Virus record (IMG/VR): IMGVR_UViG_3300045988_051359 | Length of the DNA: 64,000 nucleotides | Source of the DNA: a virus | Strand: one strand, 5' to 3' | Part shown: positions 50,007 through 50,151 of the stretch, piece after piece | Layout: each line of letters begins with the position of its first letter | How positions within the stretch are numbered: the first letter of the stretch is position 1 | Notes under the pieces: generated by a model | The model's input: only the letters and a program-made list of their open reading frames with translations | What the model was told of the DNA's origin: nothing | The model's database searches: none | Made by a program: the position numbers and the translations under genes

Positions 50007-50059
50007 ATTAATAAGAGGAAGGACAGGGATTCGAACCCTGGGGACGTTTTACCGCCCGA
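50007..50059 (-). pseudogene. tRNA 3'-half fragment (T-arm + acceptor 3' strand only)
   Basis: CAGGG-TTCGAAT-CCCTG followed by TCCTTCC. This is a near-copy of the adjacent tRNA-Ser acceptor 3' strand (TGCTTCC), with no matching 5' half. Confidence 0.5.
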
Positions 50060-50151
50060 CGGTTTTGAGGAAGCAGTGGGACTCCAACCCACACATCGCT
50101 GTTACACGATTACTGGTGCTTTTCAAGAGCACTGCCTTAGCAATTAGGCTT
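50060..50151 (-). tRNA. tRNA-Ser (anticodon TGA), type II
   Basis: Acceptor GGAAGTA/TGCTTCC, anticodon stem GTGCT/AGCAC with loop CTTGAAA, ~23-nt variable arm with ATCG/CGAT stem, T-arm GTGGG-TTGGAGT-CCCAC. Confidence 0.65.

Follow-up and report, generated by a model that had tools for sequence, protein, structure and literature searches.

A selfish cassette of 528 bp, carrying a homing endonuclease gene and a replacement tRNA-Ser gene, has most likely split a resident tRNA-Ser(UGA) gene within its anticodon loop in the 64,000-nt IMG/VR virus record IMGVR_UViG_3300045988_051359. We refer to this whole stretch as the window, to the resident gene as type B, and to the tRNA carried by the cassette as type A; all features are read on the minus strand. 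The window is apparently part of a large phage genome, with its genes all on the minus strand, a G+C content of about 36%, genes for replication and nucleotide metabolism, and 27 tRNA genes called by ARAGORN between 30.4 and 56.7 kb. The locus comprises the following features:

50627-50595, minus strand: 5' half of the resident type-B tRNA-Ser(UGA), with the acceptor 5' strand, the D arm and the 5' anticodon-stem strand, ending in ...ACGGT.
50594-50067, minus strand: inserted cassette of 528 nt, which replaces loop bases CTTG (positions 32-35) of intact type B.
50559-50594, minus strand: 36-nt cassette leader, TAGATGAACAGTTAGAAAACTCTTAATGTTATGTAA, ahead of the endonuclease start codon and conserved at all filled loci.
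50161-50558, minus strand: gene for a predicted PD-(D/E)XK homing endonuclease (PF11645, I-Ssp6803I family), a pseudogene in the window.
50288-50297, minus strand: tandem 5-nt duplication AATTC-AATTC, which frameshifts the endonuclease gene.
50068-50159, minus strand: complete cargo tRNA-Ser(UGA) of type A, called by ARAGORN and Rfam (46.2 bits).
50066-50017, minus strand: 50-nt 3' half of the resident type-B tRNA-Ser(UGA), from anticodon A36 through the acceptor 3' strand.

The initial annotation of this locus had reported a tRNA-Ser gene followed by an orphan tRNA 3' half, and both are confirmed. ARAGORN and Rfam call the tRNA (bounds 50068/50067-50159), whose 5' end had been cut off by the earlier limits of 50007-50151, and a single C (50067) separates it from the 3' half, AAAACCGTCGGGCGGTAAAACGTCCCCAGGGTTCGAATCCCTGTCCTTCC, which comprises the 3' anticodon-stem strand, the variable arm, the T arm CAGGG-TTCGAAT-CCCTG and the acceptor 3' strand TCCTTCC. 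The two acceptor strands are indeed near-identical (TCCTTCC versus TGCTTCC in the called tRNA, 6 of 7 bases). The fragment scores 40.1 bits against an Rfam model that corresponds, on the opposite strand, to the 3' half of a plastid tRNA-Ser. A candidate second tRNA overlapping the first, proposed from a mascRNA-like match (17.8 bits, E = 1.5), was judged to be due to chance.

A megablast of positions 49000-51200 against 50,697 GenBank phages returned short tRNA-Asn matches only and no relatives; these were collected through exact-pattern scans of IMG/VR. An exact search of that database with the T arm plus acceptor retrieved 29 loci, on contigs of 95-270 kb. An intact type-B tRNA-Ser(UGA), GGAAGGGTGGCAGAGTCAGGTTTAATGCAACGGTCTTGAAAACCGTCGGGCGGTAAAACGTCCCCAGGGTTCGAATCCCTGTCCTTCC, is present in 25 of them, and the remaining four have the window arrangement, that is, the type-A tRNA followed directly by the 3' half. 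The window 3' half is identical to that of the intact type-B genes over 50 of 50 positions (blastn, E = 2e-20), and its resemblance to a tRNA is therefore not a matter of chance. The earlier statement that there is no 5' half holds within the fragment itself, but a matching 5' half, GGAAGGGTGGCAGAGTTGGCTTAATGCGACGGT, lies upstream at 50627-50595, 528 nt away, and aligns with the 5' half of the intact type-B genes. Pairwise blastn of a filled locus (L009) with an empty one (L010) likewise places a type-B 5' half just upstream of the inserted block. The sequence comparisons thus identify the fragment as the displaced 3' half of a resident phage type-B tRNA-Ser(UGA) rather than a true orphan.

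The search for a host tRNA that the initial annotation had called for gave no bacterial tRNA matching the fragment beyond its T arm and acceptor: this 24-mer occurs in the tRNA-Ser of many bacteria, including Bacteroidales, and the best genuine whole-tRNA bacterial match reaches 73 of 88 positions. A host-derived attachment (att) piece was rejected after this bacterial genome scan. The fragment is phage-derived, because the two tRNA 3' ends are not repeats, no integrase was found in 30 open reading frames (ORFs) of the window, and no bacterial whole-tRNA match is better than the one just given. A type-B tRNA-Ser 86/88 identical to the phage gene was seen in a 153-kb contig labelled as a metagenome-assembled genome of Clostridium sp. 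(L123, CALEBD010000406.1), which is probably a phage contig mis-binned into a bacterial genome.

Mobility of the cassette is indicated by the comparison with empty sites. Three relatives, L279, L280 and L281, are collinear with the window from 53.2 to 46.0 kb (91-97% identity), and in them 533 nt of the window (50599-50067) correspond to 9 nt, with one intact tRNA-Ser(UGA) whose halves are continuous. This single gene lies between tRNA-Trp and a 108-aa ORF. The same presence/absence pattern distinguishes L009 (filled) from L010 (empty). Across the site, intact type B reads ACGGT-CTTGAAA-ACCGT; in split type B, ACGGT is followed by TAGATGAA...GCTTCCTC and then by AAAACCGT. The cassette junctions, ACGGT to TAGAT at one end and GCTTCCTC to AAAAC at the other, are identical in nine contigs representing at least two unrelated flank contexts, and the 613-nt unit made up of half, cassette and half is 94% identical between the window and L009, two loci whose surrounding 6 kb share only weak tRNA similarity.

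The sequences flanking the cassette point in the same direction. The native allele at the window site has the D arm AGTTGGCTTAATGCG, the anticodon stem GCAGT/ACTGT and the variable arm TGGTCGTGTAACAGCGATCC. The halves in the window are chimeric, with the native D arm, a donor-type anticodon stem (ACGGT/ACCGT), and a donor-type variable arm and whole 3' half; in five other contigs with the context of the window (L031, L034-L036, L061), the donor stem is present on the 5' side and the native 3' half is kept. Variable co-conversion tracts are a classic result of the repair of endonuclease-induced double-strand breaks (PMC3984707), and the flanking chimeras, judged by their sequence, are the co-conversion signature of homing. 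Two hallmarks of a free-standing homing endonuclease element are found here, namely presence or absence at one site in collinear genomes and co-conversion of variable length. The resident gene is split at the presumed target site, and the anticodon stem of the cargo tRNA is not the same (GTGCT/AGCAC versus ACGGT/ACCGT).

The encoded protein is, by profile and structural-model comparisons, a predicted PD-(D/E)XK homing endonuclease of the I-Ssp6803I family. Intact relatives have an ORF of 130 aa, which matches Pfam PF11645 with 36.6 bits (31.4 bits for the window ORF; cut-off 26.1). A profile of 19 homologues had I-Ssp6803I (2OST) as its sole significant entry in the PDB (E = 2.5e-5), and the top four fold matches of an AlphaFold model (pLDDT 83.8) were the four 2OST chains (TM 0.73). 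The window ORF starts at 50558; 50558-50265 encodes residues 1-98, and a different frame, at 50292-50164, encodes residues 88-130 (tblastn), as relatives have GATAATTCTACATG where the window has GATAATTCAATTCTACATG at the duplication site. An identical truncated product (98 aa) has been recorded from three contigs (148-181 kb), which means that the frameshift is not a sequencing error in the window. Decay of the gene is common, since it is also degraded in L053 and internally deleted in P0019, P0060, P0092 and P0116, as expected of the invasion-fixation-decay cycle of homing endonucleases.

We detected 217 homologues of the endonuclease family. Nearly all of its viral loci (51 of 53) sit in tRNA arrays, and in 35 of the 53 the start of a tRNA is no more than about 90 nt from the expected stop codon; in the window, the type-A tRNA begins 1 nt past it. 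The adjacent tRNA is of class II in 32 of these 35 cases (Ser-UGA 17, Ser-GCU 4, Tyr 10, Leu 1). The endonuclease ORFs of L041-L046 have in-frame TAG at codons 7, 39 and 61, codon 39 being that of the invariant Gln39, a pattern that in sequence terms fits recoding of TAG to Gln. A tRNA(CUA), an amber suppressor, was seen in the window at 52262-52334.

Type A is the sole tRNA-Ser(UGA) that ARAGORN calls in the window, and the comparisons and fold predictions below indicate a structurally intact, real tRNA. Its minimum-energy fold is an exact cloverleaf with a long variable arm (-31.4 kcal/mol). A set of 29 distinct family members, pre-selected for acceptor and anticodon-stem pairing and retrieved with a search pattern that fixed the D arm, has 99.7% of its cells paired and double compensatory changes at 19 of the 27 pairs, a result matched by none of 500 shuffles. 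Close copies of the cassette vary in the same way, with GTGCT/AGCAC replaced by GTAGT/ACTAC in the anticodon stem and GGAAG/CTTCC by GGAGG/CCTCC in the acceptor.

The window copy further differs at the tertiary elbow of the tRNA, where C19:G56 (window 50140 and 50085) replaces G19:C56: its D loop reads ...TTGC... and its T loop TTGGAGT, versus ...TTGG... and TTCGAGT in relatives. Of the 29 members, 18 have GC at 19:56, 11 have CG, and none is unpaired there, and among 98 unique sequences (L158-L277) the D-loop change from G19 to C and the T-loop change from C56 to G are perfectly linked (11 versus 70, without exceptions). The linked changes are, at the level of sequence, a natural exchange of the elbow pair within one lineage of phage tRNA-Ser and, with a correlation that is perfect in 82 sequences, they provide a clean natural test of tRNA elbow requirements. 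The odd features of the cargo (the C19:G56 elbow and a small D loop) might also have been selected for escape from tRNA-targeting host defences. A metagenome scan showed that type-A-like tRNAs form a broad gut and rumen phage family, in which few sampled members have this endonuclease upstream.

The same cassette interrupts another tRNA-Ser(UGA) gene, type C (GGAGGTTTGCCAGAACGGTAATGGAACGGACTTGAAATCCGATG...AGCCTCC), also within the anticodon loop. Of 22 type-C loci, 19 have the gene intact and one (L088) has it truncated at the 3' end. The gene is split in L053 and L091, where both halves are kept and ACGGACTT is joined to TGTAGATAAA...GCTTCCTC and then to TATCCGATG, and in L040 and L089, where the 3' half is deleted. 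As the breakpoints differ from those in type B, the insertion into type C is independent. In-silico deletions rescanned with ARAGORN proved too permissive, yielding chimeras with neighbouring tRNAs; they pointed to L053, and direct inspection was used instead.

A reciprocal arrangement was seen in L203 (at about 4467-5080, as oriented) and L230, where a type-A-like tRNA-Ser is split at the anticodon loop by a cassette composed of an HNH-like ORF and a type-C-like tRNA-Ser(UGA); L203 keeps both resident halves of the split gene. The L203 ORF is termed HNH-like only, because its HNH assignment falls below the Pfam cut-offs; it has TAG where L230 has CAA. A leader similar to that of the window cassette, AGAT...TAATGTT.ATGTAAA(A)TG, precedes the HNH-like cassette in both. 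Three independent events have thus hit the same few anticodon-loop nucleotides, in types B and C with the window cassette and in a type-A-like gene with the HNH-like one. We tentatively propose, at somewhat less than even odds, a gene-drive contest between tRNA-Ser(UGA) alleles in gut and rumen phages, in which each endonuclease type would carry a tRNA cargo as antidote and compensation and would insert into the anticodon-loop DNA of the other alleles. The parties would include at least two unrelated endonuclease types, PD-(D/E)XK with type-A tRNA and the HNH-like enzyme with type-C-like tRNA, as part of the same tentative proposal.

The course of events that we envisage for the window cassette would begin with co-infection, when the endonuclease would attack phages that lack the cassette, cutting their intact tRNA-Ser(UGA) genes of types B and C in the DNA of the anticodon stem-loop. 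Repair from the cassette-bearing genome, with the two tRNA halves and their flanks serving as homology arms, would copy the cassette in and co-convert nearby markers. Splitting of the gene would destroy the target site. The cargo tRNA would escape cutting, since its anticodon stem differs, and would replace the lost decoding function, and the two halves would persist as non-functional relics. The element in the window would be past its active phase, as its endonuclease gene is frameshifted.

Several considerations count against this proposal. The break in B and C anticodon-loop DNA by this enzyme, the resistance of type A and the loss of function of the halves are what we infer, and the proposed cleavage activity and its target are drawn solely from homology and from the sites of insertion. 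The endonuclease of the window is inactive, so that nothing is mobile there now. The founding insertions were imprecise, with CTTG lost in B and GAA lost in C, and were therefore illegitimate events rather than textbook homing. The link between endonuclease and tRNA could be secondary, given how few of the sampled type-A-like tRNAs have the endonuclease upstream. Finally, the halves in the window carry no disabling mutations, which makes some residual function possible. Their relic status is addressed by relatives that have kept the cargo tRNA: L040 and L041-L047 lost the 3' half through recombination between similar acceptor ends, and L041-L047 also have a mutated 5' half (GCAACGGT changed to GTAATCGT). 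The halves are dispensable, as these losses and mutations indicate.

The initial annotation had itself allowed that the fragment might belong to a longer, interrupted tRNA gene. It is indeed the 3' part of an interrupted tRNA-Ser, but the interruption does not behave as a spliceable intron. Were the 528 nt to leave the transcript, whether spliced out as a group I or other intron or lost through processing and ligation, the halves could form a functional second tRNA with an exon junction from ...ACGGU to AAAACCGU. We consider this very unlikely, even though the anticodon loop is the classic site of bacterial tRNA introns, the closest relative of the endonuclease is the intron-encoded I-Ssp6803I, the halves in the window look undamaged, and an RNA ligase is encoded at 685-2073. 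Without the missing CTTG, the joined halves cannot give CUUGAAA, and U33 is absent from all the 7-nt loops that they could form. The insert terminates with ...CCUC instead of G; outside the ORF it consists of 36 nt and a complete tRNA, leaving no room for a ribozyme core. Rfam found no match to Intron_gpI (RF00028) at E <= 10 in a 1.2-kb search (49500-50700), the intron and long-intron modes of ARAGORN did not report the split gene, and relatives have lost the 3' half or carry a mutated 5' half. Intervening sequences do occur in related tRNA-Ser(UGA) genes, and they look different: in L158, L164 and L246, type-A-like genes contain an ORF-less sequence of 430-480 nt between U34 and G35, from which the loop is exactly restorable. 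The one in L246, which served as a positive control, matches RF00028 over the full model length, though weakly (23.9 bits, E = 0.0013, E-value scan), and a scan of all three at the Rfam gathering threshold gave no group I intron.

Duplicated tRNA 3' ends are typical of integrase targets, and the locus had accordingly been taken for a possible att core. The idea of a recombination footprint at a tRNA gene stands; that of an att footprint, left by integration or excision of a mobile element or representing the phage's own attP, we regard as extremely improbable. The start of the fragment in the anticodon loop does correspond to one known integrase sublocation. However, the supposedly duplicated 3' ends are different sequences that have no more in common than the T-loop consensus and 6 of the 7 acceptor bases and form no identical direct repeat; the fragment is separated from its 5' partner by no more than a 528-bp insert, whose genes are for an endonuclease and a tRNA and not for an integrase; in collinear phage genomes, an intact phage tRNA gene stands at the empty site; and the tRNAs of bacterial genomes match nothing beyond the 24-nt T arm and acceptor. 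The absence of a visible integrase is borne out among the 30 window ORFs scanned, a set that does not cover smaller ORFs or sequence outside the window. Ordinary illegitimate recombination or mosaic shuffling in the tRNA array, with the endonuclease as a passenger spread by general homologous recombination, is less remote but still improbable. Phage tRNA arrays are highly mosaic, the junctions are imprecise and type-A-like tRNAs mostly come without the endonuclease, yet chance shuffling would have to account for three independent events at the same few nucleotides, for a founder of the endonuclease family that targets the tRNA anticodon region, for a class II tRNA near the expected stop codon in 32 of 53 viral loci, and for variable co-conversion tracts that fit break-induced repair. 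It is also very unlikely that the 3' half has a function of its own, as a processing or termination signal for the cargo transcript, a decoy for host nucleases or a regulatory tRNA-like element. Its perfect conservation in the window, its two stable hairpins and the existence of host defences that cut class II tRNAs (PMC13096335) would suit such a role; the perfect identity is explained by recent co-conversion from the donor, and L040 and L041-L047 have deleted the 3' half without replacement. It folds as variable-arm and T-arm hairpins only, no more stably than shuffled sequence (z = -1.5). A cassette that split the resident gene by homing remains our preferred explanation.

Parts of this arrangement recall known systems. 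In Synechocystis, the group I intron of tRNA-fMet encodes the PD-(D/E)XK homing endonuclease I-Ssp6803I (PDB 2OST; target-site details are taken from PMC3384342 and from a title cited in PMC3984707). The two enzymes share family and fold, both are inserted in the anticodon loop of a tRNA gene, and the stem-loop DNA of the window, ACGGTCTTGAAAACCGT, is near-palindromic like the I-Ssp6803I target. In contrast to I-Ssp6803I, the window element has no intron ribozyme, interrupts a tRNA that splicing cannot restore, carries a whole replacement tRNA, and belongs to a large phage of the gut or rumen and not to a cyanobacterium; sequence identity is about 21-25%. T4 SegB is a free-standing GIY-YIG homing endonuclease in a tRNA cluster that cuts within the tRNA genes of related phages, a case of 'intronless homing', and drives the preferential inheritance of its own gene and of neighbouring tRNAs with co-conversion (PMC2330249; PMC13096335). 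The window gene is likewise free-standing among phage tRNAs, but SegB belongs to another nuclease family, recognises a T-psi-C stem-loop motif, lies between genes and splits no tRNA. A dedicated replacement tRNA or flanking tRNA halves have not been described for it.

Free-standing mitochondrial homing endonuclease genes, such as that in Allomyces atp6, reportedly invade a gene and at the same time supply a substitute copy of its end. There too the target is disrupted, a foreign functional substitute is supplied and the displaced native segment is left downstream as a pseudogene; those cases concern protein-coding genes and 3' portions only, whereas here a complete RNA gene is supplied and both native halves remain. 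The locus also resembles intron-borne target protection, in that the same phage population has the ORF-less, group-I-like sequences between U34 and G35 and that an interrupted or changed target gives immunity; in the window, unlike there, immunity and function would come from a substitute gene and not from an intron. With the tRNA att sites of tyrosine integrases it shares a partial tRNA 3' segment beside a complete tRNA and a breakpoint in the anticodon loop, but there is no repeat, integrase or host-genome junction, and the element measures 528 bp. Gut jumbo phages contain stand-alone PDDEXK_5 genes, and counts of these have been published (PMC12880540). Our full-text literature searches did not turn up any account of a tRNA gene split by a homing endonuclease that brings its own replacement tRNA. 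What is already known is thus the occurrence of free-standing homing endonucleases in phage tRNA clusters; what appears to be new is an element carrying a spare tRNA.

Other RNA features were observed in the window and its relatives. A match to an HDV-like ribozyme (RF02682, 52117-52258, minus strand) scores 38.1 bits, below the gathering score of 44, and lies directly 3' of an un-called tRNA-like sequence (acceptor GCGGAGG/TCTCCGC, CAU anticodon, odd D arm) that follows the amber-suppressor tRNA; the arrangement resembles the theta ribozymes described beside tRNAs in recoded gut phages (PMC10879173). A strong RAGATH-34 match at 56665-56762 (minus strand; 86.9 bits, gathering 60.7) abuts or overlaps tRNA-Pro(AGG) at 56598-56669, and a phage-encoded transfer-messenger RNA (RF00023) is matched over the full model at 58290-58805 (minus strand; 516 nt, 55.7 bits). 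Rfam calls a tRNA at 54503-54572 (minus strand; 40.6 bits) that ARAGORN does not. Neither tool calls a tRNA-like sequence at about 63752-63850 (minus strand) with acceptor GAACCAG...CTGGTTC, a canonical T arm, about 30 extra nt in the D loop and an anticodon arm of irregular form. At about 34130-34190 (minus strand), a canonical T arm, GGGGTTCGAATCCTC, and an acceptor-like 3' tail occur with no recognisable 5' part nearby; this could be either another relic or a different RNA with a tRNA-like end. The RNA ligase homologue at 685-2073 (minus strand; phrog_968, E = 1.5e-44) may function in tRNA repair. A 34-nt mini element, GCAGATATAAGCCTAATTGGTAAGGCAGTTCTGC, with an acceptor-like stem and the type-A D arm only, recurs in many human-gut contigs (L167, L171, L172, L180, L182, L231, L245, L249, L250, L255, L258), where it immediately precedes a tRNA whose anticodon loop has UUU, assigned to Lys by reading of the loop alone.

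Homing endonucleases spare the host gene by residing in self-splicing introns, in inteins or at intergenic sites. The element described here apparently breaks a tRNA gene outright and pays with a working, cut-resistant substitute. If this is true, a spare gene would join introns and inteins as a third means by which a homing endonuclease can enter a functional gene at no cost. Should biochemistry confirm it, the element would add a distinct strategy to the repertoire of selfish elements, provide a source of small natural endonucleases with long tRNA-gene targets, and warn annotators that tRNA halves in phages can be scars of invasion and not att sites. It would also help to explain the mosaic tRNA arrays of phages and the tRNA fragments that they contain.

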